Part shown: piece after piece, positions 341 through 24,554 of the stretch
How positions within the stretch are numbered: the stretch's first letter is position 1
How the letters are laid out: every line of letters starts with the position of its first letter
Origin: Methanobacteriota archaeon
GTDB lineage: Archaea > Thermoplasmatota > Thermoplasmata > UBA10834
DNA length: 64,000 bases
Direction of reading: 5' to 3'
NCBI GenBank assembly: GCA_020725925.1
Contig: DYTN01000002.1
Coordinates: 44,621 to 108,620, forward strand
The notes under the pieces: generated by a model
Databases searched by the model: none
The model's input: the letters and a program-made list of their open reading frames with translations, nothing else
Told to the model about the DNA's origin: nothing
Translations under genes and position numbers: made by a program

Positions 341-2755
341 ATGCCGAAGGACGAGTCAGGAAAGGTCACTTGCCCCATCTGCGGCTACGAATCACCGGAA
401 GGTTCCGCCAGGTGCGAGCACTGCTACAGCTCGCTTCTCCCTGTCGCCACCGAGAACGAGGGGCGGGGGAAGGACTCCAAGACGGTTCCAGACGAGAAGG
501 AGTTGGACGAGCTCAAGCTCGTTCCCGGCGTCGGAGAGGCGAAGGCGGAGGCCCTCCACGAGGCAGGCTATCGATCGATCAAGGACCTCAAGAGCGCGCG
601 CGTCGACGACCTCGCGTCCGTCAAGGGCATCGGCGAGAAGCTCGCGACCAAGATCCTCGAGAGCGTGCACAGGATGTCGACAGGGACGACGGATTCGTCC
701 CTCGCGAACTGGCTCTCGGGCGAGGACGACGGCCTGTCGGACTGGCTCTCGGGAGACGAGAGAGCGCGGCCGGAGGCCACGGTCGCCAACAGAGAGCGGC
801 CGCGGGACGATTCGCTCGCGCGCTGGCTAGCCGGCGATGAGGAGGACGTGAGCGTCTGGCTCGACGAGACGAGGACGGCCGAGGTCGAGCCGCACGAGAT
901 CGGTCCGAACGAGCTGCTCGCCCGCGAGGCCGAGCTCATCCAGCTCAGGGAAACCCTGAGGGAGAAGCTGAGGCAGCTCGACATCGGGGATTTCGACGCC
1001 CAGGGCACAATCGAGGAGCTCGCCAAGGTCCGGGGGGACTACGAGCTCGAGAGGAACAAGACGAGGGAGCTCGAGGAAGAGCTGGAGAACGTCAAGCGCG
1101 GGAGCATCGCAGTCATCAAGTTCATCAAGAGCCAGCAGGGCGGCGAGGCCGACCAGGACGCACTCGCCGACAAGCTGGCGTCCGAGATGGCCAACCGTGA
1201 GACGCTCGAGCTGCAAATCATGCAGCTCGAGGAGACCGTCTCGGCACTCAAGGACAAGCTGGACTCGGGCTTGCAGGAGCTGCCCTCGGACGCACAGGCG
1301 CTGAAGCAGCAGGAGATCGCGCTCGCGGAGAGGCAGGCACAGCTGGATGCGATGAAGAAGCAGCTCCTCGCCAAGGAGGAGGCTCTCAGTAGGGGCGCGC
1401 TCGTGGGAGCGCCCGGGGAAGCGGGCGTCGTCGTGGACCCAGGCCTCGTCCAGAAGGTCCAGGAGTATGCGCGCAGGGAGCAGGAGCTACTCGCAAAGGC
1501 CCAGGACCTCGAGTCCAGGCTCGCCCAGGCCAAGCTCGAGACGAAGCAGAAGGAGGAGATGATGAAGCTCTCGAGCGCGCCGGGAAAGACCATGGACAAG
1601 GAGGTCCTGAGGAAGGTCGAGGACGCTCAGCGCATCGAGCGGACGCTCGTCGTCAGGGAACAGGAGGTCCAGCGCCTCAGGGAGGACCTGAAGATCCGCG
1701 AGGAGGAGATCACCAAGCTCAAGGAGCCGATGAAGTACAAGGAGGACGAGATGCTCAGGCGCGAGGAGGACCTCATGTACCGCGAGCGCCTCCTCCAGGA
1801 AGAGCTCAAGAAGGTGAGCCAGGCAAGGGCGGAGCTGACCTCGCAGGACGAGCTCACGCTCAAGAGGCGCCTGGAGGAGCTCCAGGCGGAGGTCACGGTC
1901 AAGGAAGAGGAGATCAGGTCCAAGGAGAAGTACCTCTCGGCCAAGGAGGAGGAGCTGAGGCTCCGCGAGCAGGGCGTCATCACTGAGGAGATCGAGAGGC
2001 GCGAGCAGGAGCGCATGCTCGAGTTCAAGCAGGAGAAGGTGAAGACTGGAACTGCAAGGCTCGACGACCTGCTGCTCGGCGGCGTGCCGTTCGGCTCGAA
2101 CATACTGATCTATGGTCCGCCGTTCACGGGGAAGGAGGTGCTGTTGAGCGCGTTCATCGCCGAGGGGCTCAAGAAGGGCATCCCCGCACTCTGGATACTC
2201 ACCGAGAAGTCCCCCAAGGAGATGCGCGAGGAGATGTCGTACGTCGTGTCTGGGTACGAGGAGTACGAAAAGCTTGGGCTCGTGAGATACGTCGACGCGT
2301 ACTCGAGGAGCATGGGGGACGAGTCCCAGGACCCGTACGCAGAGTACATCGAGTCGCCCACGGACTACGAGTCGATCCAGAAGGCGATTGAGAACGCCAC
2401 GAAGGCGTTCAAGGAGAAGCACGAGTACTACCGCGTGGGCTTCAGGTCGATATCGACGCTCATCGCCTACCTCGACCCGGGCACGGCCTTCAGGTTCCTC
2501 AGCCCCGTCGTGGGCAGGAGGAAGAGGGACAGGGCCGTGGCGGTGTACACCATCGAGAAGGGCGTTCACGGCGAGCAGGAGATACAGATGATAGGCTCGC
2601 TCATGGACGGCATGATCGAGTTCAAGGTGGAGAACCTGAACACGTTCCTGTCCGTGAGGGGCATATGCGACGTCCAGTCCAGGGCATTCATCAGATACTC
2701 CGCAACGAAGACCGGGGTGTCGATCGGCTCGTTCTCGCTCGACCACATTCGGTGA
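341..2755 (+). CDS. Multidomain protein: N-terminal zinc ribbon, helix-hairpin-helix pair, ~450-aa coiled coil, C-terminal KaiC/RecA-like P-loop domain.
   Basis: - ORF 272..2755; preferred start ATG 341 after GGAGAG.
- N-terminal zinc ribbon CPICGY..CEHC.
- HhH motifs (LVPGVGEAKAEALHEAGY, VKGIGEKLATKILESV).
- Long Glu/Leu/Lys/Arg heptad-rich region.
- C-terminus GGVPFGSNILIYGPPFTGKEVLL..VDAY, typical of KaiC-family single domains.
- Walker A is variant (GKE instead of GKT/S). Confidence 0.7.
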   Translation: MPKDESGKVTCPICGYESPEGSARCEHCYSSLLPVATENEGRGKDSKTVPDEKELDELKLVPGVGEAKAEALHEAGYRSIKDLKSARVDDLASVKGIGEKLATKILESVHRMSTGTTDSSLANWLSGEDDGLSDWLSGDERARPEATVANRERPRDDSLARWLAGDEEDVSVWLDETRTAEVEPHEIGPNELLAREAELIQLRETLREKLRQLDIGDFDAQGTIEELAKVRGDYELERNKTRELEEELENVKRGSIAVIKFIKSQQGGEADQDALADKLASEMANRETLELQIMQLEETVSALKDKLDSGLQELPSDAQALKQQEIALAERQAQLDAMKKQLLAKEEALSRGALVGAPGEAGVVVDPGLVQKVQEYARREQELLAKAQDLESRLAQAKLETKQKEEMMKLSSAPGKTMDKEVLRKVEDAQRIERTLVVREQEVQRLREDLKIREEEITKLKEPMKYKEDEMLRREEDLMYRERLLQEELKKVSQARAELTSQDELTLKRRLEELQAEVTVKEEEIRSKEKYLSAKEEELRLREQGVITEEIERREQERMLEFKQEKVKTGTARLDDLLLGGVPFGSNILIYGPPFTGKEVLLSAFIAEGLKKGIPALWILTEKSPKEMREEMSYVVSGYEEYEKLGLVRYVDAYSRSMGDESQDPYAEYIESPTDYESIQKAIENATKAFKEKHEYYRVGFRSISTLIAYLDPGTAFRFLSPVVGRRKRDRAVAVYTIEKGVHGEQEIQMIGSLMDGMIEFKVENLNTFLSVRGICDVQSRAFIRYSATKTGVSIGSFSLDHIR

Positions 2756-3675: not shown

Positions 3676-4680
3676 ATGACGTCGTCCCCCCAGTACACTC
3701 ACTACTCTACTGACTCGACCGCCGACCGTATCAAGAAATCACCTAGATGGGGCAACGATGAGGGGGTCGCCGCGACGGTCGGCACCATCATGGCGCTCCT
3801 TGTCTTCCTGACCTTCTTCGGCATGTTCACGAACCAATTCGTCCCCGTTTGGATGGGCGACAACGAGAGCGCTCACATGTCGACTGCGATCCAACAGGTC
3901 ACGACGCTCAAGTCGTCAATCGACACCTCGATCTCGATCTACGCGAACAGCCTGGTCGCTGCGGCGCCGATGTCCGTGCCAATCACTCTAAGCGCGTCAG
4001 GCATACCCGTCTTCGCCGCTCCCACTGCGGGCATTCTGCAGTTCACACCCGAGGGAGTCCTTGTGCGCCCAATGTTCAATGTCACATACACCTACCAGTC
4101 CACGGGCGGGTATACGAACACGCTCAGCCCGGCCAACGACGGAAGGTCCGGGGGGATGCTCGACCTGTACTGTCCGAACAGGTACTATGTGGAGCAGCAC
4201 CTGACCTGGGAGAACGGCGCGGTGATACTGAACCAGAGCGACGGCGAGTTCGTCATCGCGGGACCGCAGTTCTCGGTCAGGGACCTGGGCACCGCGGGCT
4301 CGCCCAACAGGGCCGTGATGCTGACCCAGATCTCGCTCCAGGGCACCAACAAGACGATAGGGGGGACTGGCTCGAAGCTCGTCACGGCCGAGATGCAGTT
4401 CGCGGACACGAAGTCCTACGAGAACGCCAACGGTGCCTCGCTGACGATCACCATAGTCACGAAGCACGGCATGGCGTGGGCGAGGTACTTCAACTCGTCG
4501 CTCCAGAGCTCCCCCGCCGGCCTCGACTACGGGACGGACTTCTGGGTCAACTGGACCCTCCACGAGCAGACCAACAAGCTCGACAACTACTACACGGTCA
4601 CAATCACGATAGGCCAGGTCATGATACTCGACCACACGAAGGCGACAGTCAAGCTGTCAGTCGGCGAGCTGGGGGTCTAG
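3676..4680 (+). CDS. Membrane-anchored extracellular beta-rich protein, candidate (minor) pilin or pilus-associated protein of the downstream pilus operon.
   Basis: - ATG at 3676 (the ORF-track TTG at 3661 is less likely).
- A charged N-region is followed by a single hydrophobic helix VAATVGTIMALLVFLTFFGMF.
- A Thr/Ser/Gly/Asn-rich beta-rich ectodomain follows.
- Stop is 12 nt before the secretion ATPase start.
- An AT-rich TTAAATAT box lies ~45 nt upstream. Confidence 0.5.
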   Translation: MTSSPQYTHYSTDSTADRIKKSPRWGNDEGVAATVGTIMALLVFLTFFGMFTNQFVPVWMGDNESAHMSTAIQQVTTLKSSIDTSISIYANSLVAAAPMSVPITLSASGIPVFAAPTAGILQFTPEGVLVRPMFNVTYTYQSTGGYTNTLSPANDGRSGGMLDLYCPNRYYVEQHLTWENGAVILNQSDGEFVIAGPQFSVRDLGTAGSPNRAVMLTQISLQGTNKTIGGTGSKLVTAEMQFADTKSYENANGASLTITIVTKHGMAWARYFNSSLQSSPAGLDYGTDFWVNWTLHEQTNKLDNYYTVTITIGQVMILDHTKATVKLSVGELGV

Positions 4681-4691
4681 GGAGGAAGACG

Positions 4692-6446
4692 ATGGCCGAA
4701 ACACATCCGAAACCGAAGCATGAAGTGCCCGTCAGCGCCCCGAAGATGCCGCTGGGTTCGAGAATCTACCAGGGCTGGGTGGGCGCGCTGAGCAAGATGA
4801 AGTCCTCGCCCGTGGAGGTCAGACAGCCCAGGGGAGCCGCTGCCAGGAAGCGCGACTGGAGCCAGGGCAGGGGTTCGGTGTACACTCAGGTCCCGCCGAT
4901 AACCGACATCGACATCCAGGAGATGGGGTTCTACGGGGTCGAGGAGCCGTTCAGCTACGTCAGGGCCACATACAACGGCGCCACCAGCGAATACCTCCTT
5001 AACGTGATCGAGCCCGCGCTGACCGAGGAGGAGGAAGAGCTGCTGAGGCTGATTAAGGAGACCCTCGAGAAGACCCTCGAGTACGACTGGGAGAAGCTCA
5101 CGGTGATGGACAAGAAGACCTACATCGAGAGGAGCGTGGACAGCTACATCAAGTCCAGGGGGATGGCGATCGAGCCCATCTCCAAGGACAAGGTCTCATA
5201 CTTCATCGCAAGGGACTTCGTCGGCTATGGGCCAATTGACGCCCTGATGAACGACCACCACATCGAGGACGTTTCTTGCGACGGCGTTGGCATCCCGCTG
5301 TTCGTGTTCCACAGCAAGTTCGAGTCGATCAAGACGAACATCATGTTCGAGGACGAGAACGACCTGAACTCGTTCGTGGTCAACCTGGGCCAGAGGTGCG
5401 GGAAGCAGCTCTCGGTCTCAAACCCGATCCTGGACGGCACCGCACCGGAAGGGCACAGGGTCCAGGCGACGTACGCCAGGGAGGTCACGACCAGGGGCGC
5501 ATCGTTCACCATCAGGCGGTTCAAGGAGAAGCCCTTCACCCCCGTCGAGCTCATCAAGTACGGCACCGCATCTCCCGAGATCGTGGCGTACATGTGGCTC
5601 AGTGTGGAGCACGGCGAATCCGCGATCATATGCGGGGGAACAGCGAGCGGCAAGACCGCGACCTTGAACGCCATGGCACTTTTCATACCGCCCGGCGCGA
5701 AGGTCGTCACGATGGAGGACACCAGGGAGATCAACCTGCCCCACGAGAACTGGATCCCCGGCACCACCAGGTCAGGTGTGGGAGAGCGCGGGCCCGACGG
5801 CAAGGCCGCGGGCGAGATAGACATGTACGACCTGGTGAGGGCCTCGTTGAGGCAGAGGCCCAACTACATCATCGTCGGTGAGGTCAGGGGCAAGGAGACC
5901 TACACGATGTTCCAGGCGATGGCCACGGGCCACACAACATTCTCGACGATGCACGCGGACAGCGTCAAGGGCATGGTCAACAGGCTCGAGAACCCCCCCA
6001 TCAACTGCCCGAGGATACTGCTCACCGCCCTGAGGAACGTCATCATACAGACCCATGCCAGGGTGGGCATGGACATGGTCAGGCGCATAAAGCAGCTCAT
6101 AGAGATCGTGGGGTTCGAGCCCGAGACGAACGAACTGATCTCGAACACCGTCTACGAGTGGGACCAGGCAACTGACAAGTTCATCTTCAAGGGGCACAGC
6201 TTCCTGTTCGACAAGATCATGGAGATGAAGAACCTGACGCACGAGGAGCTCCTGCAGGAGTTCGAGCGGAGGGTGGACGTCGTGAAGTACATGGTCGCGA
6301 AGGACATCACTGACCACAGGGAGATCTGGGGGCTCATCAGGGAGTACTACAAGGACTCGAAGGTCACCTCGGAGCGAATCAGGAAGGAGCTCTATGGCTC
6401 CGCCCCCAGGCCCACGATGATACCCGGAGGTGAGGTCGCTGCCTGA
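4692..6446 (+). CDS. Type IV pilus/archaellum-type assembly ATPase (FlaI / TadA / GspE-VirB11 superfamily), paralog 1.
   Basis: - ATG 4692 preceded by GGAGG.
- Walker A GGTASGKTATLNA.
- Asp box TMEDTREINLPHENW.
- Walker B/His box region IIVGEVRGKETYTMFQAMATGH.
- Full-length FlaI-like N-terminal domain. Confidence 0.9.
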   Translation: MAETHPKPKHEVPVSAPKMPLGSRIYQGWVGALSKMKSSPVEVRQPRGAAARKRDWSQGRGSVYTQVPPITDIDIQEMGFYGVEEPFSYVRATYNGATSEYLLNVIEPALTEEEEELLRLIKETLEKTLEYDWEKLTVMDKKTYIERSVDSYIKSRGMAIEPISKDKVSYFIARDFVGYGPIDALMNDHHIEDVSCDGVGIPLFVFHSKFESIKTNIMFEDENDLNSFVVNLGQRCGKQLSVSNPILDGTAPEGHRVQATYAREVTTRGASFTIRRFKEKPFTPVELIKYGTASPEIVAYMWLSVEHGESAIICGGTASGKTATLNAMALFIPPGAKVVTMEDTREINLPHENWIPGTTRSGVGERGPDGKAAGEIDMYDLVRASLRQRPNYIIVGEVRGKETYTMFQAMATGHTTFSTMHADSVKGMVNRLENPPINCPRILLTALRNVIIQTHARVGMDMVRRIKQLIEIVGFEPETNELISNTVYEWDQATDKFIFKGHSFLFDKIMEMKNLTHEELLQEFERRVDVVKYMVAKDITDHREIWGLIREYYKDSKVTSERIRKELYGSAPRPTMIPGGEVAA

Positions 6447-7470: not shown

Positions 7471-8406
7471 ATGCCGCCGCAGAGGAAGATGTCGGAGCAG
7501 GAGCGGGAGAGGGCCCTCAAGAGGATCCTCGCGACTGAGCGGGCCGACAAGACCAGGACTATCGTGGGCGGCTCCATCGGAGTGGCTGCGGTCCTCATAT
7601 TCGCGGGCGTCGTGGACTACATAGGCAGTGCTGACCTGCCGCTGGACGCCATCGACTGGATCATATTCGCCATAGCCGCGATCATCGGCCCGTACGGCTT
7701 CTACGTGAGCGCCAGGGAGAAACGCGTGAGGGAGATTGAGATGAGGCTGCCCGACTTCCTCAGGGATGTCGCAGAGGCCGGGAGGTTCGGCATGACCCTC
7801 GCGGATGCCATCGTCGTCGCGAGCACCGGCAGGTACGGCAGGCTCACGCCGGAGATAAAGAAGATGGCCGCGCAGATAGAGTGGGGCGTGCCCGCCTCGG
7901 AGGCCATCAGGCTGTTCTCCGAGAGGGTCAAGACGCCCCTGGTGACGAGGATGGCATCCATCATCATGAAGGCGAACGATGCGGGCGGCAACGTCGCCGA
8001 CGTGCTGAGCATGGTCTCGCACGACGCGAAGGAGACCATCCTGACGCAGGAGGAGCGGGGCGTGACGATGCAGACCTATGTGCTCGTCGTGTACATCGCC
8101 TTCTTCGTGTTCATCGCGACAATCCTGATCCTGCAGGGCCAGTTCCTCCCGAAGATGGAGGAGGCGGGCACGCAGGTGAGCGAGGCGGCGGAGGCCCAGG
8201 GCGTCGGGGAGATACCGGGAGTGAGCATACAGGTCGACATCATACCAACAGTGGGGTTCATCTTCCTGCTGTCCGTGCTCGTACATGCGATTGGCGACGG
8301 GCTCCTGGCGGGCGTGATACAGAAGGGGAGCATCCCGATAGGCATGAGGCACAGCTTCATCATGCTGCTGGCCGGCTTCGTGTCCCTGAGGATCATAGGA
8401 GGCTGA
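7471..8406 (+). CDS. Pilus platform membrane protein with a single T2SSF domain (TadC-like), half 2.
   Basis: - Start codon abuts the previous stop (TAGATG).
- TM helices.
- T2SSF-like cytoplasmic domain LPDFLRDVAEAGRFGMTLADAI..RLFSERV. Confidence 0.75.
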   Translation: MPPQRKMSEQERERALKRILATERADKTRTIVGGSIGVAAVLIFAGVVDYIGSADLPLDAIDWIIFAIAAIIGPYGFYVSAREKRVREIEMRLPDFLRDVAEAGRFGMTLADAIVVASTGRYGRLTPEIKKMAAQIEWGVPASEAIRLFSERVKTPLVTRMASIIMKANDAGGNVADVLSMVSHDAKETILTQEERGVTMQTYVLVVYIAFFVFIATILILQGQFLPKMEEAGTQVSEAAEAQGVGEIPGVSIQVDIIPTVGFIFLLSVLVHAIGDGLLAGVIQKGSIPIGMRHSFIMLLAGFVSLRIIGG

Positions 8407-8410
8407 CAGG

Positions 8411-10126
8411 ATGACAGCAGAGACTGCGCAACCAAGGATCGTGCCTCTGGAGGCCCCGACGGAGGAGGCCAAGGAGAAGAAGAAGGGGCCTGGCCTGAAG
8501 TCCGCGTACTACAACTTCCTGCTCAAGCTCAAGCCCAAGCCCCTCATGGTCGCGCTCCCGAAGACGGAAGCGACCGTGGACATGTCCAGGATAACGGAGA
8601 TACCGAAGCTGACCGAGCCGAACATCGACGAGGTGGAGACGGCCCCGGTCAAGCAGAACTACTCCTATGTCAGGATCAAGTACGACAACAAGTCGAACGA
8701 GTACCTCTACGAGGTGATCGAGCCGCGGCTCTCAGAGGACGAGCGGGACGTGCTGAGCCTGCTCAAGGAGACGCTCGTCGCCTCCGTCGAGCACATGACG
8801 GAGGTCTCGACTGAGGAGAAGGAGAAGTACCTGAGGAGAATAGTCGAGCAGCTGATGCTCCAGCTGGCCGTCACCCTCAACCCCGTCTCGAAGGAGAGAG
8901 TGATGTACTACATAGCCAGGGACTTCATCGGGTACGGCGTCATCAACGTGATGATGATGGATCCGAACGTCGAGGACTGCTCCTGCGATGGCGTCGACAT
9001 CCCGTTCTACATATACCACAGGAAGTACGGTTCGATCAGGTCCAACCTCAGGTTCGCGGCCGAGGTGGAGCTTGACGGATTCGTCGTCTGGCTGGCCCAG
9101 AAGTGCGGCAAGCACATATCCGTGGCGAGCCCGCTCCTGGACGCCACCATCCCCGACGGCTCGAGGCTCCAGGCAACCCTGGGCAAGCACGTGACCAAGA
9201 GGGGCTCCTCGTTCACCATCAGGCGGTTCAAGGAGAACCCCTTCACGCCCCTGGACCTGCTCAAGTTCAAGACCATGGGCACCGAGATGATGGCCTACCT
9301 GTGGATCGCCATCGAGCACGGGCAGTCGATGCTCGTGTGCGGAGGCACCGCGAGCGGCAAGACGACCACGCTCAACGCCGTCCTGCTGTTCATCCCGCCC
9401 CAGATGAAGATAGTCTCGATAGAGGACACTAGGGAGCTCAACCTCCCGCATGAGAACTGGGTCCCGGGCCTGACTAGGGAGGGCTTCGGCGGCAAGAGCG
9501 CGATCACCGGCCGCGCCACGGGCGAGATAGACATGTTCGACCTGCTCACATCGGCCATGAGGCAGAGGCCCCAGTACCTGATGGTCGGAGAGGTCAGAGG
9601 CAAGGAGGCGTACGTCGTCTTCCAGGCCATGGCCACGGGCAAGACCTGCTACTCCACCTTCCACGCAGAGGATGTCCAGGCGATGGTGCACAGGATGGAG
9701 AACGACCCCATCAACCTCCCCAGGGCGCTCATCACGGCGCTCAATGTCGTGCTCCTCCAGGCGCAGGTCAAGGTCGGCACGAAGATGACCAGGCGGGTCA
9801 AGTCGCTCACTGAGATCGTCGGGTTCGACCCCGAGACCAACGAGCTCATCACCAACTCTGTCTACACCTGGAACCCGGCGGACGACACCTTCAACTACAG
9901 CGGCCACAGCTATGTCTACGAGAAGGTCAGGATGGCCAGGAACTGGTCCCCCAGGGAGATGGAGAGGGAGCTCAAGAGGCGCGTGGACATCCTGGAGTAC
10001 ATGAAGAAGATAGGCATGGACAGCCACAGGAAGGTCGCGACGATCATCTCGGCGTACTACAAGGACCCCGAGAAGGTCATGAAAGAGGTCCGGGCGAAGC
10101 TGGCCGAGGGCGCGGAGAGGATCTGA
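8411..10126 (+). CDS. Type IV pilus assembly ATPase (FlaI/TadA family), paralog 2.
   Basis: - AGGAGG 8 nt upstream of the ATG.
- Walker A GGTASGKTTTLNA.
- Asp box SIEDTRELNLPHENW.
- MVGEVRGKEAYVVFQAMATG.
- Roughly 50-55% identical to the 4692..6446 product over its full length. Confidence 0.9.
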   Translation: MTAETAQPRIVPLEAPTEEAKEKKKGPGLKSAYYNFLLKLKPKPLMVALPKTEATVDMSRITEIPKLTEPNIDEVETAPVKQNYSYVRIKYDNKSNEYLYEVIEPRLSEDERDVLSLLKETLVASVEHMTEVSTEEKEKYLRRIVEQLMLQLAVTLNPVSKERVMYYIARDFIGYGVINVMMMDPNVEDCSCDGVDIPFYIYHRKYGSIRSNLRFAAEVELDGFVVWLAQKCGKHISVASPLLDATIPDGSRLQATLGKHVTKRGSSFTIRRFKENPFTPLDLLKFKTMGTEMMAYLWIAIEHGQSMLVCGGTASGKTTTLNAVLLFIPPQMKIVSIEDTRELNLPHENWVPGLTREGFGGKSAITGRATGEIDMFDLLTSAMRQRPQYLMVGEVRGKEAYVVFQAMATGKTCYSTFHAEDVQAMVHRMENDPINLPRALITALNVVLLQAQVKVGTKMTRRVKSLTEIVGFDPETNELITNSVYTWNPADDTFNYSGHSYVYEKVRMARNWSPREMERELKRRVDILEYMKKIGMDSHRKVATIISAYYKDPEKVMKEVRAKLAEGAERI

Positions 10127-10236: not shown

Positions 10237-13200
10237 CTACTGGTTCTCCTCGTCGCCGCCTTCCTCGCCCTCTTTCTTCTCCTCGGCGCCCAACGGCGTC
10301 TTTATGATCTTCTTGGGCACGACCTTGCGGTCGATCGGTCTCCTGATGACCATCCTCGGAGCGGCTGCCGGGGGCACTGCCGGTGGCGCACCAGCCTCCC
10401 TCTCCGCTGGAGCTGCTGGCTCCACTGCAGCCGGTGCCGTGGGCGGTGGGCCCCTGCGCACAGGCGGTGGGGCGGCTCTCTCGGCGCCGAACACGGTGCC
10501 GCACTTGTGGCACACGGTGGCCTCCTTCGGGTTTAGCGTTCCGCAGACCGGGCACGGGATCGGCCCCTCCTTCTTCTTCTCCTCTTCCTTGGCGAGCCAG
10601 TCCTCGAAGCTGATGTACGCCGGCTGTCTCCTCCACCACTCCTCGAAGGCCCTGTCGGTGAACTTCTTGCCCAGCTCCGGCTTGGCGAGCTCACGGTACT
10701 TGGAGACCATGTCGTCGTACTGCTTCCTCATGCGCTCCAAGTAGTCCGCCTCCTCCTCGACCTCGCCGATGAACTTCACGCCACAGTTCGGGCACTCAGC
10801 GGACTCGGCGGGTATCCATGCGCCGCACTCGGAGCACTTCATCGTACCAGCTTCGAACTCCACGCCACACTTCGGGCACCTCTTGCTCGCAGCGGGTATG
10901 AACGCGCCGCACTCGCCGCACTCGACGAGCTTGCCGAGGCCATACACGTACGTGTATATGGTGAAGCCCGCGACGACGCCGACCACCGCCACTATGATCA
11001 CGATCCAGACCCACCACGGGAACAGGCCGCCCTCGACGGCCGCGCTGATGGTGACCGTCGTGGTGGCATCGTAGTTCTGGCCCAGCACGACCGTCCTCAC
11101 GGCATACGAGCCCGAGTCCAGCTCAGCGGGTATCCTCAGGAAGACTATGATGCTCCCGTCGGCGTCGGTCGTCTCGACCGTGCTGTTGGAGTAGGGCACG
11201 ACCAGCGGGTTGTCGGGGTCGCTCGGATCGATCAGCCAGAAGACCACTCCCGGCAGGCCCACCACGCCTTGGGACGTCCCCTGGTAAGTTATCGTGGCCG
11301 TGATGATCATGATGTCGCCGGCGTCGTACTCGTTCGCGTCGGTGGTCACGGTGACCGAGACCTGCAGCTGCTGTATCGTGAAGGTGTGGTTGGCGAAGTT
11401 GTTGGTCTCGTATGGCTCCGACACGGAGTAGGCCGGATCGAGCCAGACCCACAGCTCGTATTCTCCTGGCGTTGTGAGGTTGATCAGCCAGCTCACGGAG
11501 ATCAGAAGCACGTTGTCAGTCGCGTTGGCGGAGATGTTGTACTCCAGGCCGGTGTGTATCGTGTGGTTGTAGCCCGCAGCGTTCCTCACGCCGATCCGCA
11601 CCTCAAAGACGCTGACGACGCTGCCGCCCAGGTTGCGCACCCTGGCATTGACGGTCACGTTCCTCCCGAAGGTCTCGCCCGTGGTGTTGCTCCCGCCGCG
11701 CTGGACGAATATCTCGTCACCGTCGATCGACAGGTCCGCCCTGATGTCCAGCACGGTGATCGACCCTGTGAGGATGTTGTCCGCATAGGACTCCTCGATG
11801 CGGGACTGCTCGGGGTTGACTATCACGACGATGCTGGCAACGACACTCTGGGTGAGCACTGGGGCAGGGAACTCTATCTTGACCGGCCACTTCCCACTCT
11901 CAGATGTCAGGCTCACGATGACGGTCGTTGTCTTGAGCTCCGAGATGCCCGAGTAGTTGAAGTACACCCAGACCTCCGGGTTGGAGAACGGCATTGGGTT
12001 GGAGTTGCTGAGGTTCACTTCGACTGTGATTGTCTGGCCGCCAGCGACCGAGCCGGCAGGGGATATCTTGAGGTCCGTCAGCTTCAGGTCCGGATGCTCG
12101 TACACGTCGATGTAGACGTAGTCCCAGTTGTTCGTGGTGTACAGCTCCTCGACCCCGTCGGGCAGGCTGGCCACTACTGTGATCCAATGCAGCTCGGGCG
12201 TGGAAGGTGTCCACGGCATTGAGACGAACGTATAGGAGCCAGGAGCGATGCTCGGGATCGTCGTCGTCCCGACCAAGTCCCCTCCGTCGAAGATGTCCAC
12301 AGTCACATCGTAGCTGGTGTTGCTGCCGATGTTGCTTATCTTCGCGACCAGGGTCGTGGGAACATCGACTTCGACGTAGGTATCAGTCGCATAGATCCAT
12401 GGGTCCCACGGGTAGCCATCAGACACGTAGACGTCCGGGAGGCTCTTGACAGTGACGAACCCAGACCCAGTAGCTGGTGCTGTGTTGTTGAGCTCAGGGA
12501 TCGTGTCCAGCGGGTCGACGACAACGATGATTCTGTGCGCATTTGGGTCCAACGGGCTGTCAGCAGTCCAATACCACACAGCGGTGGCATTCGAGCCCGG
12601 CTCGATGACGGGTATCACCGTGGATCCGAAAAGCTCGTCCGACTCAGGGATTCCGTTGTCCCAAGCGTCGTCGTAGAAGTCCACCCTGACATCATATGCC
12701 CTCGCGATACCGTCATTGTGAATGTTGGCGTACACGGTGACGTTCTGCCCAATCCTGGGGTACACAGGGTCAGTCCAAACAGGCACCGGAGGATCATGCA
12801 CTGCCAAGTCCGGCAACGCATCCTCGATGGTCACTGTCAGGTAGGTCACGTTTCTCCCGAGGGGAGTCGTGTAGGGCAGGACGCTCGTCGAAACCTCGCC
12901 GTCGGGGTAGTAGTTCTGCGAGTTGAACGTGTAGGTCACGTTCACCCAGTAGTTGCCCACGTAGCCTTCTGTCGGTCCTGCGCTCGTCAATCTCTGCGCG
13001 AGCGCGTTCACCTTGGCGACACCAAGCGCATCAGGTGCGGAGCTGCTCACAGCAGAGCTTGCGTTTATGCCACTGATGTAGTACCTCGCGGTCACCAAGG
13101 CGCCTGGCAAAGGCTTGCCGACACCGTCCAGGACGGTGACATGTATCCATCTGTATATCAGAGCCGCTGCGTCGCGCTCGACTGTTATGGAGGGAGCGCT

Positions 13201-15408
13201 TGTGTTCGTGAACTCGCCGACTGTGGTTCCAGACAGGATGGGAGCGGCCTGAAGGTCAGAGTCCTTGACGATGATGCTTGCATTGGAGTCCCATTCGGAA
13301 GTGATGACCTTGTCAATCGCCGAGTTCACGATCAGGACTTGAGCGTTCTCGCGGGCCACGATGCTCACACCGACCAGCGATGAATTCAGCACCTGGAGCC
13401 TGCCCTCACCCTGGACGATTATGTCGATCGGCAACGCACTAGACATCGTGGATCCTTCGAACACGAGGAGTGCGGGGTTCGACAGAGTCCCGTCGACGTA
13501 GACCGTCCTCTGGTTCGCGGAGGTCTGCACTATCTGGAAGACCGCGTTCGTGAACCTGAGCGTGCCACCTGCGGCGACGATCGTGTCGCCAGCGTGGTAG
13601 TACGTCATATCGTATATGTGCAAGGAGGGCGGGACAACCAGCCACCTGGCTGGGTCAGGGCTCTCAGCGGATGCCCCCAGCAATGACACGGTTACATCAT
13701 CGCTCTGATCCGAAGCTGTCATAGCTGGATAAGCGTCAAGAGAGAAGGTTTCTGTCGACGAGTAGTTGATAACGCCAATCATTGCACTTCCCGTGATAGC
13801 ATAGGAGCCGACGTAGAGCGATTCGGGGATACCGGCATTCGTGATTATGTCAGAGAGATACGGTATCGCGGCTCTACCATCTGACTTTGTGACGTTGAAT
13901 GTTAGGGCAGTCTCTCCCATATAGCCAAGGACCTCAGGAGGCGGGCTCATGGACAGCCCCGTCGGAGTATAATAGAAGGCTTGCTCGCCCTGGAGCTCGG
14001 TGATTCCCGTGAAATGAGCAACAACGGAGGCACCTTCAATTGGAACGCCATACTCATCTCCCACGGTGACATTCAACCATCTGTAGATGAAGGCATCAGC
14101 ACCGACGGTGAACTCGACTCCGATCCAGTCAAACTCCACGAAACCAGTGCCGACACCGCCGTTGTTCTCGAACCGCACATTGAGTTCCATTATGTCTGCG
14201 ACAGTTGGCACAGCTCCCAACGGTAGGTCAAAGGACATCAGAGTCCCAGGTGGGTCAGTCACACGCGGGATAACGCTAGAATCAGAGTAGACCCCTGACT
14301 CCGGACTCCACTGAATGGCAGCAGTCCCAGCATATGTAGGGGCGACAGAGTACTCCCCAATGACGGAGGCGGAACTCACTGAAAGCGCCGGAGCTAGAGT
14401 GCCGATATCCCATGTGTCAACCTCAAGTATCATTGTCGGCTGCACTTGGATTGTAGAACCGTCGTCGAGCCTGATATTTCCGATTGGCTGACCGGTGTTG
14501 TCATCTCCTCCTTGAGCAAGAGGAACTGCCGTTTGTAGACTACCACCAAGAGAAACCACTGCTGGCGCCCGGTCCGCAAGAGCGCCTGCATACGTCTCGA
14601 AAGATGTGCCATACAAATACGCGTGAGACAGATCATCCAACGCGAGGGTGTTGTGCACATACCAGTGCCCAAGCGTTATCGCAGGTCCGAAGTCCACAGC
14701 GAGGAAACTGTTGACTGCCAACAGGGTCGAGTCCCCGTTCAGCGTGATGTTCTTGGCGAACTGGGCATTCGTCGGATACTCGGGAAGGTCCAATATGCTC
14801 GAGTCGTACAGCTCCAACGTCGAGTCCGTGAGCGTTATCGCCGGCCCGTCATCCGCCGAATCGTAGGTTATGGCACCGCTCGACCCGACGACATACTGGG
14901 AGACGAGCTCTCCCGGCAACGCATGAATCGTGCACTCGTCCAGGGACATCGTGCCGCCGTTCACCAGGGTGATGTTCCCGGGGAACATGAACTCCGATAG
15001 GGCAGAAGCCTCTACCACACCGCCGTCCACAGTGAGCTCGAGGAACGGCCACGGGTTGATCTGGTCCAAGTAAGTGGTTATGACGCCGTGGTCCAGAGTG
15101 AGCGTCCCACCTGCGAACACGGTGATGGAGTGCTTCAATGTCGGGTCGTTGTTGCTGATGACGCTCAGGGTGGCGTCCCTGACTATCAGCGTACCCCCGC
15201 TCCTGACCTCCACGTCGCCGTCGATGGGCTGTTCGATGTTCTCGATGACGTAGGTCTCGTTCTCGACGATCAGGTCGCCCTCGGCGGCTTCCGTTGTCGG
15301 GGCGCCCGAGAGGAACAACAGCCCCGCGAACGCAGAGAACACAAGACTCACGACAACCAAAGCACTCAGAGTTCTATTGGCAAGGAGCATGTCAGCTTTG
15401 CCCTTCAT
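10237..15408 (-). CDS. Giant cell-surface protein (~1720 aa): signal peptide, right-handed beta-helix-like region, several CARDB-like Ig-fold domains, C-terminal TM helix, and a cytoplasmic tail carrying three zinc-ribbon motifs, a Pro/Ala-rich stretch and an acidic tail.
   Basis: - ORF 10237..15480; likely start ATG 15408 (MKGKADMLLANRTLSALVVVSLVFSAFAGLLFL).
- Repeated NxT sequons and beta-strand-rich repeats.
- CARDB-like blocks (PDLAVHDPPVP..VTVYANIHNDG..; PDVYVSDGYPW..; ADLSIDGDEIFVQRGG..).
- C-terminal TM helix WWVWIVIIVAVVGVVAGFTIYTYV.
- Cytoplasmic tail: CGECGAFIPAASKRCPKCG, CSECGAWIPAESAECPNCG, CPVCGTLNPKEATVCHKCG. Confidence 0.8.
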   Translation of the reverse strand: MKGKADMLLANRTLSALVVVSLVFSAFAGLLFLSGAPTTEAAEGDLIVENETYVIENIEQPIDGDVEVRSGGTLIVRDATLSVISNNDPTLKHSITVFAGGTLTLDHGVITTYLDQINPWPFLELTVDGGVVEASALSEFMFPGNITLVNGGTMSLDECTIHALPGELVSQYVVGSSGAITYDSADDGPAITLTDSTLELYDSSILDLPEYPTNAQFAKNITLNGDSTLLAVNSFLAVDFGPAITLGHWYVHNTLALDDLSHAYLYGTSFETYAGALADRAPAVVSLGGSLQTAVPLAQGGDDNTGQPIGNIRLDDGSTIQVQPTMILEVDTWDIGTLAPALSVSSASVIGEYSVAPTYAGTAAIQWSPESGVYSDSSVIPRVTDPPGTLMSFDLPLGAVPTVADIMELNVRFENNGGVGTGFVEFDWIGVEFTVGADAFIYRWLNVTVGDEYGVPIEGASVVAHFTGITELQGEQAFYYTPTGLSMSPPPEVLGYMGETALTFNVTKSDGRAAIPYLSDIITNAGIPESLYVGSYAITGSAMIGVINYSSTETFSLDAYPAMTASDQSDDVTVSLLGASAESPDPARWLVVPPSLHIYDMTYYHAGDTIVAAGGTLRFTNAVFQIVQTSANQRTVYVDGTLSNPALLVFEGSTMSSALPIDIIVQGEGRLQVLNSSLVGVSIVARENAQVLIVNSAIDKVITSEWDSNASIIVKDSDLQAAPILSGTTVGEFTNTSAPSITVERDAAALIYRWIHVTVLDGVGKPLPGALVTARYYISGINASSAVSSSAPDALGVAKVNALAQRLTSAGPTEGYVGNYWVNVTYTFNSQNYYPDGEVSTSVLPYTTPLGRNVTYLTVTIEDALPDLAVHDPPVPVWTDPVYPRIGQNVTVYANIHNDGIARAYDVRVDFYDDAWDNGIPESDELFGSTVIPVIEPGSNATAVWYWTADSPLDPNAHRIIVVVDPLDTIPELNNTAPATGSGFVTVKSLPDVYVSDGYPWDPWIYATDTYVEVDVPTTLVAKISNIGSNTSYDVTVDIFDGGDLVGTTTIPSIAPGSYTFVSMPWTPSTPELHWITVVASLPDGVEELYTTNNWDYVYIDVYEHPDLKLTDLKISPAGSVAGGQTITVEVNLSNSNPMPFSNPEVWVYFNYSGISELKTTTVIVSLTSESGKWPVKIEFPAPVLTQSVVASIVVIVNPEQSRIEESYADNILTGSITVLDIRADLSIDGDEIFVQRGGSNTTGETFGRNVTVNARVRNLGGSVVSVFEVRIGVRNAAGYNHTIHTGLEYNISANATDNVLLISVSWLINLTTPGEYELWVWLDPAYSVSEPYETNNFANHTFTIQQLQVSVTVTTDANEYDAGDIMIITATITYQGTSQGVVGLPGVVFWLIDPSDPDNPLVVPYSNSTVETTDADGSIIVFLRIPAELDSGSYAVRTVVLGQNYDATTTVTISAAVEGGLFPWWVWIVIIVAVVGVVAGFTIYTYVYGLGKLVECGECGAFIPAASKRCPKCGVEFEAGTMKCSECGAWIPAESAECPNCGVKFIGEVEEEADYLERMRKQYDDMVSKYRELAKPELGKKFTDRAFEEWWRRQPAYISFEDWLAKEEEKKKEGPIPCPVCGTLNPKEATVCHKCGTVFGAERAAPPPVRRGPPPTAPAAVEPAAPAEREAGAPPAVPPAAAPRMVIRRPIDRKVVPKKIIKTPLGAEEKKEGEEGGDEENQ

Positions 15409-15521: not shown

Positions 15522-16517
15522 CTAACCGCTTTTTCGCTTCACTATTTTCTTGACAAATATCTGCGGTTTCCTCGTCTCCGAGGGCTTGTCAGAGACATCT
15601 TCCGAGCCGACCTTCACCTCGAGCTTCGTCAGCGATTCCTTGATGTTCACGCCGCAGGCGTAGCACATCAGGGCGTCCCGGCTGACCATCGTCTTGCAGT
15701 TGAGGCAGGGGATCTCTTCATCCTCGGACCCCTCCTCTGCCTTCACGGGCTCGCCGAACTCCTCCTCGCGTATCTTCTGCCCGCAGGCGTAGCACATGAT
15801 CGCGTCCTTGCTGATCACGGTCCTGCAGCCGGGGCAGAGCATCTCGTCCTCGCTCAGCGTGGCTGCGAGCGCGGGCTCGGGCTCAATCCTGACCGGCGCG
15901 GCTGCCACCTTGGTCAGCATGTCCTTCTGGCGGTCCAGGAGCTTCCTCGCGTCCTCCGAGAGCTTCTCCCTGTCGCGCCTGAGGGACTCCTCCTCCTCCG
16001 CGAGCGCGCGCTCCCTCGCGACGAGCGTGTCCCTCCGGGCAGTGATCTGCTCGAGCACCCGCTGGATCTCCTCCTCGGACTTCTTCAGCAGGTCCTCCCT
16101 GCTCAGGAGCCTCTTCCGCCTTTCGGTCACATCCGCCTGGAGGGTGTTGATCTCCGCAAGCCTGTCCGAGGCGTCCTTCTCCCTCGCCTCCGCAGACGTG
16201 ACCGCCGCCTTCGATACCGCCTCGAGCTTGGCTAGCTCGGCGGCCCTCGAATCAAGCTGGCCCGCCCTCTCCTTAAGGGATGACTCCTGTCTCTTGAGTT
16301 CCTCAACGCGCGCCTCGACCGAGGATTCCTTCTGCCTGATCGAATCCTCCTTCTCCCTGAGGCGCTGCTCGAGCGCCTCGACCTCGGACTTCTGCTTCAG
16401 GACGTCCTCGCGCTCCGCCTTGAGCTCGAGGTCCTTCTTCCTGACCTCGGCCTCCTGGGTCTTGAGGCGCTTGACCGCGTCCTCGATTATCTGGGAGATC
16501 GTCTGGTCTTCTGCCAT
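15522..16517 (-). CDS. Coiled-coil protein with two C-terminal zinc ribbons (DZR-type).
   Basis: - ~230 aa of Glu/Lys/Arg/Leu-rich heptads.
- Then CPGCRTVISKDAIMCYACG and CLNCKTMVSRDALMCYACG.
- Followed 80 nt later, on the same strand, by a KaiC-like gene. Confidence 0.7.
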   Translation of the reverse strand: MAEDQTISQIIEDAVKRLKTQEAEVRKKDLELKAEREDVLKQKSEVEALEQRLREKEDSIRQKESSVEARVEELKRQESSLKERAGQLDSRAAELAKLEAVSKAAVTSAEAREKDASDRLAEINTLQADVTERRKRLLSREDLLKKSEEEIQRVLEQITARRDTLVARERALAEEEESLRRDREKLSEDARKLLDRQKDMLTKVAAAPVRIEPEPALAATLSEDEMLCPGCRTVISKDAIMCYACGQKIREEEFGEPVKAEEGSEDEEIPCLNCKTMVSRDALMCYACGVNIKESLTKLEVKVGSEDVSDKPSETRKPQIFVKKIVKRKSG

Positions 16518-16596: not shown

Positions 16597-17313
16597 CTAC
16601 GGCGCGCTCATGAGCGGGCCGAGCACCTGGATGCCGTTCCTCCCGACCTCGATCGCGTGCCTTTCCATCGAGTGCTCCGAAGCCCTCATCTTCTCCACCT
16701 GCAGGAACCTCACGAGCTTCCCACGCTGCCTGTCCAGGCCGAGCATCAGTATGCCGTCCGCGAGGAAGCCCTCGTTGCCCAGGAGCTGGCTCTCGCCCGA
16801 GAGCGAGCGCTCCATTATGATGAAGCATGTCAGGTTGTTGTCCCTGATCATCTTGAAGAAATAGAACATCTTCTTGCGCATGTCGCTCACGTTCTCCATG
16901 AGCGAGTAGAGCGCGCCGAGCGAGTCGAGGACGAATATCGAGAACTTGTCCCCGTGGGTCTTCTTGAAGCGCTGGATCATCTTCTCGATGAAGAGGACGT
17001 AGTCGGTCTGCGCCTCCTGGCCTATGACCTCGTCTATCTGGTCGACCTCCCTGAGGTCGGTCAGGTCCGAGATCTGCATCTTCATCGAGAGCTTCGCGCC
17101 TACGCTGTCCATGTTCTTCAGGTGGCTGTCGACCGTCTCCTCCAGGGTGGTGTACAGCCCGAACTCGTTCTTGTCTTTGAGGTAGCTGCTCATGAGAGAA
17201 TAGCAGAATGTGGTCTTCATCGAGCCCGGGGGTCCAGTGACCAAGACGACCTTCGGCCGGTCGATGTCGTTCTTGAAGACCTTCTCCAAGCCCGGAACAG
17301 AATCCTTGAACAA
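16597..17313 (-). CDS. KaiC/RecA-superfamily single-domain (pseudo)ATPase (COG0467-like).
   Basis: - TTG start 7 nt after AGGAGG.
- VVLVTGPPGSMKTTFCYSL..FVLDSLGALY..CFIIMER matches the KaiC-like fold.
- P-loop has Met in place of the second Gly. Confidence 0.75.
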   Translation of the reverse strand: MFKDSVPGLEKVFKNDIDRPKVVLVTGPPGSMKTTFCYSLMSSYLKDKNEFGLYTTLEETVDSHLKNMDSVGAKLSMKMQISDLTDLREVDQIDEVIGQEAQTDYVLFIEKMIQRFKKTHGDKFSIFVLDSLGALYSLMENVSDMRKKMFYFFKMIRDNNLTCFIIMERSLSGESQLLGNEGFLADGILMLGLDRQRGKLVRFLQVEKMRASEHSMERHAIEVGRNGIQVLGPLMSAP

Positions 17314-23603: not shown

Positions 23604-24554
23604 TCAGAGCGACAGGCCCATCGGGAGGCGCATGACGGCTCCGACCAGGAGGTACACGATCCCGGCCGCGATGACGGCCAGGATCTCTGAAAGCACGGCC
23701 TCCCCCGTGGAGATGTCGTTCGCAACGCTGATGGCTCTGCTTGCGATTGTGACGAGCCACACCAGGCCGACCAGGGCGATGAGCAACAGGACGCCGCCCG
23801 CGGCGATTGCCTGGTCGAGCTCATCAGGGGTCCAATCCTGGACATCTGTCATGTCGAGGCCCTGGAACCCCACGGTGAACAGCACCAAGAGCACGATCTC
23901 CAGGAACACGTATGCAGGGTAGACGTAGCCGAGGAGGGTGAGGGTGGCCGTACGCTCACCCCTCCCGCCGAAGATGTTCTTGGCGATTACCGCGGCAGCG
24001 ACGCCGAACAACAGGAAGGCGAGCAGCGAGATCACCCAGCTGACGAATCCCTGGAATGCAACCTCCAGCGCGTCGCCCGTGCTGTATCCCAGCACCTCGC
24101 CCATGTCGGCCGTCACGAGCGTGCTCACCACTGCGGACAGGATCGAGAACACGACGACGATGGCCAAAGCCCTCTGGAGGTTGGTGGACAGGTAGAGCGA
24201 CACGCAGGCCTTGGTGGGAGAGTACAGGATCCTGACGAGGTCCGCGAAGTCCGGCCTCGGCGCGTGCTTCGGCTGCATGTAGAGCCCGGGGTAGTGGCTG
24301 ATGTGGACGTGCGGATGCGCGGGCGAATGGAAATCCGAAGGCGGTATCTGTTCGACGAAGTGCGCGGGGAGCGCCTGCCTGATGGTGGTGCCGCACCTCG
24401 GGCAGTTCGTGACGCCGGTCCCATCCCCCAACGACTGGAGATAGCCAGACGCTCTGAACCCGCACGACGGACATGCGATGTCGTGCGCATACACGACGGA
24501 CTCTGGGATCATGCCTTGGGCCAATCGTGTCCAGAGGATATGATTGTTGCCCAC
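23604..24554 (-). CDS. Yip1-family multi-pass membrane protein with an N-terminal double zinc ribbon.
   Basis: - N-terminus CPSCGFRASG...CPRCGTTI.
- Then 5 TM helices with a Yip1-like pattern. Confidence 0.65.
   Translation of the reverse strand: MGNNHILWTRLAQGMIPESVVYAHDIACPSCGFRASGYLQSLGDGTGVTNCPRCGTTIRQALPAHFVEQIPPSDFHSPAHPHVHISHYPGLYMQPKHAPRPDFADLVRILYSPTKACVSLYLSTNLQRALAIVVVFSILSAVVSTLVTADMGEVLGYSTGDALEVAFQGFVSWVISLLAFLLFGVAAAVIAKNIFGGRGERTATLTLLGYVYPAYVFLEIVLLVLFTVGFQGLDMTDVQDWTPDELDQAIAAGGVLLLIALVGLVWLVTIASRAISVANDISTGEAVLSEILAVIAAGIVYLLVGAVMRLPMGLSL

Follow-up and report, generated by a model that had tools for sequence, protein, structure and literature searches.

A giant archaeal surface protein with a strongly conserved zinc-ribbon tail, encoded beside a pilus-type gene cluster in Thermoplasmata

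We describe here a giant surface protein whose gene lies in a 64,000-nucleotide stretch of DNA, referred to below as the window, from the genome of an archaeon of the Thermoplasmata (GenBank assembly GCA_020725925.1, contig DYTN01000002.1, positions 44,621 to 108,620 of the forward strand). The gene occupies 10237..15408 on the reverse strand, with an ATG at 15408 and the stop codon at 10237-10239, and the open reading frame (ORF) list and its translation give a product of 1,723 amino acids (aa), in agreement with the surface protein of about 1,720 residues proposed in a preliminary description of this DNA. The present work establishes the architecture of the protein, the gradient of conservation along it, the family to which it belongs and the linkage of its gene to a pilus-type cluster. 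The best explanation of these features, on the sequence evidence, is that the giant protein is a surface component of a type-IV-filament-like cluster of Methanomassiliicoccales-related Thermoplasmata. From conservation and genomic context we further propose, with a probability of roughly 0.5, that its C-terminal tail docks the surface protein to the cytoplasmic scaffold of that cluster. In the usual description, a surface protein of archaea has a bare helix or a lipid for its anchor and, to our knowledge, little is known of communication between envelope and cytoplasm in archaea, especially in lineages without a rigid wall. The docking reading offers a testable hypothesis of a physical surface-to-cytoplasm link, with named candidate partners and short motifs, and the conservation of the tail, whose double ribbon surpasses GyrB, together with its fixed genomic partnership with a pilus-type cluster, adds to its interest.

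About 70 full-length homologs were found, with 43-60% identity and 98-100% coverage, all of them in metagenome-assembled genomes (MAGs) of Thermoplasmata and all with CARDB and DZR domains. Unless stated otherwise, the identities given below are mean identities to the window protein in the alignment of 70 full-length homologs. Conservation is highest in the tail, whose double zinc ribbon reaches 95% and third ribbon 92%, against 44% for the whole ectodomain, in which the heads and sandwiches stand at 53-58% and the CARDB stalk, at 35%, is the least conserved folded part. GyrB is 76-91% identical in the same genomes, a range that the double ribbon exceeds. A HMMER search with the transmembrane (TM) helix and tail retrieved 1,033 cluster representatives (clusters at 50% identity) at E <= 1e-3, 201 of them at E <= 1e-30, and those listed that are of full size (1,000-4,500 residues) have the match at their very C-terminal end. 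The double ribbon is carried by 139 of the listed representatives, and in 138 of these a TM helix stands directly ahead of the ribbons; their tails measure 114-321 residues (median 226), with three ribbons in 119 and four in 19, and at least one basic-hydrophobic motif [RK][RK][IVL][IVL][RK] is present in the last 80 residues of 124. The ectodomains joined to this constant module range from about 700 to 4,200 aa. We considered that the module might carry a variable payload of unrelated ectodomains, an idea set aside because all 25 diverse members scanned with Pfam carry CARDB together with the N-terminal head motifs, and the whole architecture is therefore old. Some short members, including two short proteins and the soil "EA" group, have no detectable CARDB or alignable ectodomain.

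The preliminary description had pointed to a substantial, structured tail with zinc ribbons, a Pro/Ala-rich spacer and an acidic end, and Pfam, AlphaFold and composition agree with it. AlphaFold models were made of single chains, one covering aa 1-950 and the other the TM helix plus tail. The single TM helix (aa 1462-1488; 10945..11025, on the reverse strand like all parts of this gene; identity 68%) has a hydropathy maximum of 2.66 and is modelled as a helix with a predicted local distance difference test (pLDDT) score of up to 97; besides the N-terminus, it is the sole other strongly hydrophobic segment. It is followed by a tail of 235 aa, which begins with a double zinc ribbon of four CxxC pairs (aa 1489-1546; 10771..10944; identity 95%), detected as Pfam DZR (PF12773; 34.2 bits against a cutoff of 27.3, at aa 1497-1543; C1497-C1542), and all eight of its cysteines are invariant, distant relatives included. 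Next comes a three-helix domain (aa 1547-1615; 10564..10770; pLDDT ~95; identity 76%) with the pattern ..YxxKYRELAKxELGKKF..F..WW..QP.YISF.DWLAKEEE and invariant aromatic residues, for which the copy of Pfam searched and NCBIfam gave no family and the PDB no match among solved structures; this unit between the ribbons defines a conserved domain. The third zinc ribbon, CPVCGTLNPKEATVCHKCG (C1619-C1636; aa 1616-1641; 10486..10563; Pfam Zn_Ribbon_1; identity 92%), resembles those of ArnA and L40e. Beyond it lie a Pro/Ala-rich linker of variable length and sequence (aa 1642-1689; 10342..10485; pLDDT <50), a basic-hydrophobic peptide motif, APRMVIRRPIDRKVVPKKIIKTP (aa 1690-1711; 10276..10341; identity 79%), and a variable acidic end recognised by composition and alignment (aa 1712-1723; 10240..10275); in the model, disorder covers residues 205-284 (aa 1644-1723). 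The TM region, FPWWVWIVIIVAVVGVVAGFTIYTYV, contains no PGF motif of the PGF-CTERM/archaeosortase type, and 235 residues come after it.

The orientation of the tail was deduced from independent rules, namely the signal and TM count, the N-glycosylation sequons, the positive-inside rule and the distribution of cysteines. A signal peptide had been proposed in the preliminary description, and hydropathy supports a Sec-type signal sequence or uncleaved signal anchor (aa 1-40; 15289..15408), with a basic n-region, a 21-residue hydrophobic core and the small-residue c-region SGAPTTEAAEG, a layout kept in the homologs; residues 1-41 are unstructured in the AlphaFold model (pLDDT <50). With a signal or anchor at the N-terminus and a single later TM helix, the C-terminus would lie in the cytoplasm. 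The protein has 27 N-x-S/T sequons, 26 of them in the ectodomain and none in the tail, and the many sequons noted previously exceed chance, since 12.4 +/- 3.1 were expected in the ectodomain from 5,000 shuffles, only two of which reached 26. Across the 139 representatives, 3,407 sequons occur in 162,394 aa before the TM helix and 37 in 32,022 aa after it (2.1 against 0.12 per 100 aa). Lys and Arg are richer on the tail side of the helix in 107 of 137 relatives and poorer in four, with means of 0.7 and 1.9 in the 15 flanking residues on the N-terminal and tail sides, respectively. Twelve of the 13 cysteines are in the tail, as six CxxC pairs, and one is in the ectodomain; the reducing cytoplasm is where CxxC zinc sites typically occur. 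Extracellular ribbons had been named beforehand as the finding that would overturn the preliminary description, and sequons, charges and cysteines all favour a cytoplasmic tail instead. From these strong, if indirect, rules we infer that the zinc-ribbon tail is cytoplasmic and likewise, from established rules, that the protein is exported by Sec, stopped at its single TM helix, N-glycosylated outside and zinc-binding inside. An inverted topology with extracellular ribbons, or an ORF fused through an assembly error, is scarcely credible: the assembly does contain at least one indel, a frameshift that splits gyrA, but the giant ORF is nevertheless collinear with its 70 independent full-length homologs, which share one architecture at 98-100% coverage, and the three distributions just given, together with the cytoplasmic character of CxxC zinc sites, point the same way.

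A class III (pilin) signal was also sought at the N-terminus, as the pattern [KRDE][GA][ALIFQMVED][ILMVTAS] directly followed by a hydrophobic stretch and conserved in the family. KADM at aa 4-7 of the giant protein matches the four-residue pattern only, and it is parted from the hydrophobic core by a charged ANR segment and not kept in four of the relatives; being neither conserved nor adjacent to the core, it was rejected.

The genomic setting of the tail-bearing gene is also conserved. When the window proteins were compared by tblastn with 85 related loci, nearly every locus with enough flank had the same order, in which the KaiC-like gene, the coiled-coil/zinc-ribbon gene and the tail-bearing gene are met by a convergent PilB-TadC-TadC-PilB-pilin-like-p148-HhH/KaiC series. 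Upstream of the giant gene, the window encodes a 331-aa coiled-coil/zinc-ribbon protein (15522..16517, reverse strand) with a 200-aa coiled coil, two ribbons (Pfam DZR and Zn_ribbon_3) and the C-terminus ..PQIFVKKIVKRKSG, and, before it, a 238-aa KaiC/ArlH-like single-domain ATPase (16597..17313, reverse strand; Pfam KaiC 2.3e-33, with NCBIfam KaiC and FlaH scores under their cutoffs). This ATPase is 81-93% identical within the clade, and its link to the giant gene extends to distant lineages. In the remotest of the lineages compared, the coiled-coil/ribbon gene was missed by tblastn and recovered by ORF inspection. The linkage persists in Methanomassiliicoccaceae and in the soil EA lineages, where the tail is 45-50% identical, the protein has 920-2,097 aa and the gyrase neighbours are replaced.

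On the forward strand, a FlaI/PilB-type secretion ATPase (8411..10126; Pfam T2SSE and PilB3_C) is convergent with the giant gene, and it is preceded by two half-size TadC/ArlJ-type platform proteins, each with one Pfam T2SSF domain, which match the C-half (7471-8406) and the N-half (6430-7470) of ArlJ, and by a second FlaI/PilB-type ATPase (4692..6446; Pfam/NCBIfam and synteny), called ATPase 1 here. NCBIfam FlaI scores for the two ATPases are 427 bits (8411..10126) and 413 bits, against a cutoff of 550. Next to ATPase 1 is kept a 334-aa pilin-like protein (3676..4680), with no Pfam match and an ortholog that matches DUF7289 weakly, whose N-terminus, ..NDEG|VAATVGTIMALLVFLTFF.., fits the class III pattern; the giant protein, having no conserved signal of that kind, is not taken for a pilin. 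The 148-aa protein p148 lies, in cluster order, between the pilin-like gene and the gene of an 804-aa HhH/KaiC protein (341..2755), which is kept at the far end of the cluster (Pfam, NCBIfam and synteny) and comprises a zinc ribbon, HhH, acidic WL repeats, a coiled coil of about 380 aa and a KaiC-like domain. In three loci (L043, L072 and L078) tandem pairs of tail-bearing genes, of about 770-955 and 1,530-1,550 aa, stand beside one pilus-type cluster, and short and long forms therefore have the same tail within one genome.

A peptide motif is common to the tail and to its coiled-coil neighbour. The coiled-coil/ribbon protein ends, like the tail, in a basic motif (..KKI[IV]K..), and a motif of this kind closes it in all 33 loci that capture it directly upstream, its C-termini reading ..PQIFVKKIVKKK in the window clade, ..SIRKIIRRK in Methanomassiliicoccaceae and ..SVKKVLKKKVI in the EA lineage. 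The eight-residue pattern [IVLF][IVLF]x[KR][KR][IVLM][IVLM][KR], chosen post hoc, is found among the 52 ORF products of the window only in the giant protein and this neighbour, with 0.18 occurrences expected. The motif is R-rich in both proteins in Methanomassiliicoccaceae and K-rich in both in the window clade; such Arg/Lys co-variation involves only about four independent lineages and was not used as evidence.

Taking these observations together, we envisage a type I membrane glycoprotein, of which a Sec signal would export about 1,420 residues until the helix stops transfer and leaves 235 residues in the cytoplasm. In the ectodomain, a stalk of four CARDB domains and one further beta-sandwich would carry two heads, both of them right-handed beta-helices with a transthyretin-like sandwich after each. 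Under the membrane, the double ribbon, the three-helix domain and the third ribbon would make up a docking module, from which a flexible linker leads to the peptide motif, and the membrane-proximal folded unit and the distal motif may both bind cytoplasmic partners encoded in the cluster. As the soluble coiled-coil neighbour has the same motif, both proteins probably share one receptor, and the highly conserved KaiC-like ATPase encoded next door would be the first candidate for it. In this way an adhesive or envelope-forming ectodomain could be kept at a pilus-type machine, with a mechanical or signalling connection between the two, and the protein would serve either to sense contact or as an anchor or stator in the envelope.

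Several points weigh against the docking proposal. Tail-bearing paralogs occur in unrelated contexts (L005, L006 and L049), so that the tail does not require the cluster in cis. Gene linkage could derive in part from vertical inheritance, gyrB and gyrA being equally tightly linked in the nearer relatives, and the giant gene has a promoter-like element of its own and is convergent with the pilus operon, outside it. The basic motif could bind acidic lipids or nucleic acid instead of a protein. Lastly, the ribbons are generic, and the sole PDB similarity of the tail is that of a ribbon and a low-complexity linker to ArnA (E = 3.5e-6).

The presence of gyrase genes nearby, together with the combination of zinc ribbons and a Lys/Arg-rich motif, bears on the idea that the tail binds nucleic acid or division/segregation proteins and so tethers the chromosome or the divisome to the envelope. 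Other neighbours could be read in the same sense, as they include a DnaA-type ATPase fusion, an HhH protein and SMC-like coiled coils, and there is a precedent in CdpC of Haloferax volcanii, a multi-zinc-ribbon protein with a long disordered linker that anchors the FtsZ1 polymer to the membrane and of which distant multi-ribbon relatives have been reported in Thermoplasmatota (bioRxiv 10.64898/2026.07.16.738847). Nevertheless, the gyrase linkage is gone in distant lineages while the pilus-type genes remain, the coiled-coil matches to SMC and Rad50 are generic (E ~1e-4), and the ribbons have no specific similarity to DNA-binding ones, which makes such a tether very improbable. For the docking proposal, CdpC is of value as a precedent, likened by description and not by sequence, that archaeal zinc ribbons can act as docking modules at the membrane.

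The constancy of the module at the extreme C-terminus of proteins whose ectodomains vary so widely in length, and the tandem tail-bearing paralogs beside one machine in L043, L072 and L078, could also suggest that TM helix and tail are a sorting or assembly signal, comparable to the C-terminal sorting domains of other secretion systems, read by the FlaI/TadC machine or the KaiC-like ATPases in order to insert, position or extract the giant protein. We hold this to be very unlikely, since an ordinary Sec-type N-terminus leaves nothing further to be required for export, known C-terminal sorting signals are short while this tail has three folded units, and PGF-CTERM and class III signals are absent. 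In addition, the motif also occurs in the soluble coiled-coil neighbour, a fact that docking fits better than export.

The locus can be compared with known systems. Large "S-layer-like" proteins with a TM helix at the C-terminus, and KaiC-family ATPases, are frequent in the type IV pilus loci of archaea (Makarova, Koonin & Albers 2016, PMC4858521), and one subclade of these loci has a coiled-coil protein, arCOG07564, likened to the coiled-coil/zinc-ribbon protein HP0958 (PMC4858521). The giant protein has both features of the "S-layer-like" class: it is large, with an N-terminal signal and a single C-terminal TM helix, and it is encoded at a locus with a FlaI-type ATPase and TadC. KaiC-like ATPases and a coiled-coil protein are likewise present. 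On these sequence features it belongs to that known class, and it is the tail, the motif and the composition of the cluster that set it apart. The "S-layer-like" proteins are described with a bare C-terminal anchor, whereas the giant protein has a folded tail of 235 aa as its best-conserved part; moreover, unlike in those loci, tail and neighbour have a motif in common, and two ATPases, a split platform and the HhH/coiled-coil/KaiC protein give the cluster a composition of its own. The survey found no secretion ATPases in the cultured Methanomassiliicoccus genomes that it covered (PMC4858521), and the present cluster was therefore not among its loci. Full-text literature searches returned no description of the tail, of its motif in a cytoplasmic neighbour or of the cluster. 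HP0958 (FlgZ) of Helicobacter and arCOG07564 resemble the upstream neighbour, by description only, in combining a coiled coil and a zinc ribbon in a filament locus; the neighbour differs from them by its two ribbons and by the basic motif at its C-terminus, which is also found in a membrane protein.

There is also a likeness to the archaellum with its scaffold and stator (the KaiC-like ATPase ArlH, ArlX or ArlCDE, and ArlF/ArlG), since each of the two systems has a FlaI-type ATPase, a platform of the ArlJ/TadC type, a KaiC-like ATPase of one domain and cytoplasmic coiled-coil proteins, and each includes extracellular proteins that are thought to tie the motor to the envelope. In contrast to the archaellum, there are two ATPases and a split platform, and the link to the envelope would be one transmembrane giant and not small periplasmic stators. 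A bona fide archaellum was rejected because both ATPases score under the FlaI cutoff (427 and 413 against 550 bits) and no archaellins or ArlF/G are encoded in the cluster; with Pfam and NCBIfam, no homologs of ArlF, G, C, D, E or X and no archaellins were found among the cluster proteins.

The best PDB match of the tail profile is ArnA of Sulfolobus (5a8i and 8s05; third ribbon and linker, E = 3.5e-6), whose ribbon binds a partner protein and which regulates a type IV filament, the archaellum. The soluble ArnA combines its ribbon with an FHA domain, while the giant protein is membrane-anchored, has no FHA match and is alike over about 25 ordered residues; for these reasons it was not assigned to the ArnA family. 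The match to a regulator of archaellum expression nonetheless recalls a further reading, in which the giant protein is a contact or ligand sensor whose tail relays to a KaiC-like ATPase hub and switches the pilus machine on or off. KaiC-like ATPases have been proposed as regulators of archaeal pili and archaella (PMC4858521), and the tail is far better conserved than the part that would sense. Still, neither an enzymatic domain nor a known signalling domain is present in the tail, the likeness to ArnA is limited to some 25 ribbon residues and low-complexity sequence without FHA, and a glycosylated multi-domain stalk of 1,400 aa would be unusual for a sensor. A purely sensory role is thus distinctly unlikely in our view, although it overlaps with docking and differs only in the use made of the coupling.

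A bolder version of the docking proposal can also be formulated. In P1 and Gli349, adhesins of the wall-less bacteria Mycoplasma, and in integrins, a giant surface protein with one C-terminal TM helix extends a Pro-rich tail to internal coiled-coil and ATPase structures, and these are analogies only, with no homology to the giant protein. The protein may be the outer limb of an unrecognised trans-envelope machine of wall-less Thermoplasmata, a glycosylated beta-helix/CARDB "leg" mechanically coupled across the membrane, via its tail, to a motor of two FlaI-type ATPases on a split TadC platform, to KaiC-like ATPases and to zinc-ribbon coiled-coil struts. We know of no motility or cytoskeleton in these archaea, and we put this forward as a speculative idea that is rather improbable; if true, archaea would have in this machine an equivalent of focal adhesions or Mycoplasma gliding legs, passing force or contact signals between surface and cytoplasm.

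The ectodomain is built of recurring modules. Behind the signal sequence there is a first beta-helix-like head (aa 41-300; 14509..15288; AlphaFold strands and Foldseek; identity 54%), followed by a hypervariable insert (aa 301-440; 14089..14508; alignment occupancy 0.6; identity 23%) and by a beta-sandwich of the CarboxypepD_reg/transthyretin-like type with the motif IYRWLNVTV..D..G.P (aa 441-590; 13639..14088; AlphaFold; identity 58%), CarboxypepD_reg having been detected in relatives of the giant protein. The second beta-helix-like module (aa 591-745; 13174..13638; strands 589-735 with pLDDT >90; identity 55%) is likewise followed by a beta-sandwich, in this case with the motif IYRWIHVTV and a weak Big_1 match (aa 746-865; 12814..13173; AlphaFold). 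A stalk of four tandem CARDB domains (aa 866-1345; 11374..12813; identity 35%) then leads to a membrane-proximal beta-sandwich (aa 1346-1461; 11026..11373), which has a weak match to a PITM beta-sandwich and was assigned by analogy with the adjoining domains. AlphaFold modelled aa 1-950 confidently (pLDDT 85.8) as an all-beta chain in which the strands at 46-300 and 589-735 are short and regular, and Foldseek comparison with the PDB and viral models gave weak matches to phage tailspikes, pertactin, Ag43 and pectate-lyase-type proteins (E from 1e-9 to 1e-2), with low TM-scores because the model is multi-domain, as well as transthyretin- and pilin-type sandwiches and a weak match to SlaB. Pfam and NCBIfam give no family for the heads; on the model, their fold is probably a beta-helix, in line with the parallel beta-helix-like repeats proposed previously. 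At least three CARDB-like domains had also been proposed, and Pfam CARDB (PF07705; E = 5.5e-33; 113.6 bits against a gathering cutoff of 22.7) is above threshold at 866-985, 1010-1095 and 1240-1340, to which a segment scan adds a weak fourth at 1106-1212 (E = 0.018). Elsewhere in the window, a secreted protein with five CarboxypepD_reg-like domains (36273-37958, forward strand) has sandwiches of the same type as this ectodomain.

Since archaeal S-layer proteins likewise have a large, glycosylated ectodomain, an Ig-like stalk and a TM helix at the C-terminus, and since SlaB is among the weak Foldseek matches, the giant protein might instead be the main S-layer-like envelope glycoprotein of these wall-less archaea, with a lattice that the tail fixes to the membrane or to a coiled-coil layer resembling a cytoskeleton, and with the pilus cluster a mere neighbour. 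Its distal heads (54-58%) are better conserved than the stalk (35%), as lattice contacts would predict, and its gene usually occurs as one copy per genome, with its own TATA-like element, at a fixed, housekeeping-rich spot beside gyrBA and thiC. We consider this reading doubtful, as the linkage to KaiC, coiled-coil, FlaI and TadC genes outlasts the change of housekeeping neighbours, and a simple anchor needs no tail of 150 residues at 86% identity. Furthermore, cultured Methanomassiliicoccus are reported to be without pilus-type ATPases (PMC4858521) and no cultured organism is found among the named homologs, so that the protein is not a universal envelope component of the order.

Upstream of the gene, a TATA-like box, TTTTATAT, at 15470-15463 on the reverse strand, about 55 nt 5' of the ATG, may act as the promoter, and GGTGA is found by inspection at 15417-15413, 4 nt ahead of the ATG at 15408. 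An alternative GTG start at 15480 is unlikely, because the TATA-like box would fall just within the extension and GGTGA precedes the ATG at 15408. An identical protein is already present in NCBI, without a name. In the same assembly, gyrA (17438-20036, reverse strand) is read as two overlapping ORFs through one extra A near 19000 (GGCATA-A-TTCAAC), where an ortholog reads TTFGINNLALV; the split is probably an assembly or sequencing indel and not the mark of a pseudogene.

The family is widespread in soil, sediment and groundwater Thermoplasmata, including relatives of the Methanomassiliicoccales. When one genome per species was scanned, 255 relatives came to light; they belong to MAGs of Thermoplasmata, Methanomassiliicoccales/-aceae and soil "Methanobacteriota EA", and the sole one outside Thermoplasmata is on a 2-kb contig binned as Paceibacterota, which is probably mis-binned. 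The protein searches and the genome scan returned MAGs only, with no named homolog from a cultured organism. In Joint Genome Institute data, many tail fragments go under the names "ribosomal protein L40E", "RNA polymerase subunit RPABC4/Spt4" or "subtilase family serine protease"; the ribbons and the CARDB repeats have given rise to these systematic mis-annotations, and the definition of the family corrects the L40E/RPABC4 labelling.

Some minor observations concern the proteins of the cluster and their neighbours. The Walker A of the KaiC-like ATPase, GPPGSMKT, has Met in place of the canonical Gly, also in distant lineages (L044, L059 and L075), and its ATPase activity may therefore be atypical. 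In the HhH/KaiC protein the HhH is RadA/ComEA-like, the Walker A is an odd GPPFTGKE, and there are four xWL[SA]G[DE]E repeats; the strongly conserved F(E/D)DWLAKEEE of helix 3 in the tail of the giant protein, with its invariant Trp, is similar to these acidic WL repeats. A stand-alone archaeal type IV pilin (44554-45117, reverse strand; Pilin_N, E = 5e-10) is a candidate for the major pilin of the FlaI/TadC machine, about 35 kb away. The window further encodes a bacterial-type DnaA ATPase domain fused to DUF835 (24815-26974, forward strand) and, beside it, a protein of 543 aa (26999-28630, reverse strand) that has three zinc ribbons and Pro/Ala-rich linkers and whose C-terminal domain is helical; in soil EA lineages this gene pair is found directly upstream of the KaiC-like gene, which makes it a possible part of the cluster. 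A membrane protein that combines a Yip1 domain with a zinc ribbon at its N-terminus (23604-24554, reverse strand) is kept nearby in two of the related loci, and six proteins encoded between 272 and 28630 have CxxC..CxxC ribbons. Finally, an Lhr-type helicase of 1,801 aa (30733-36138, reverse strand) is fused to an AlkZ-like DNA glycosylase domain.

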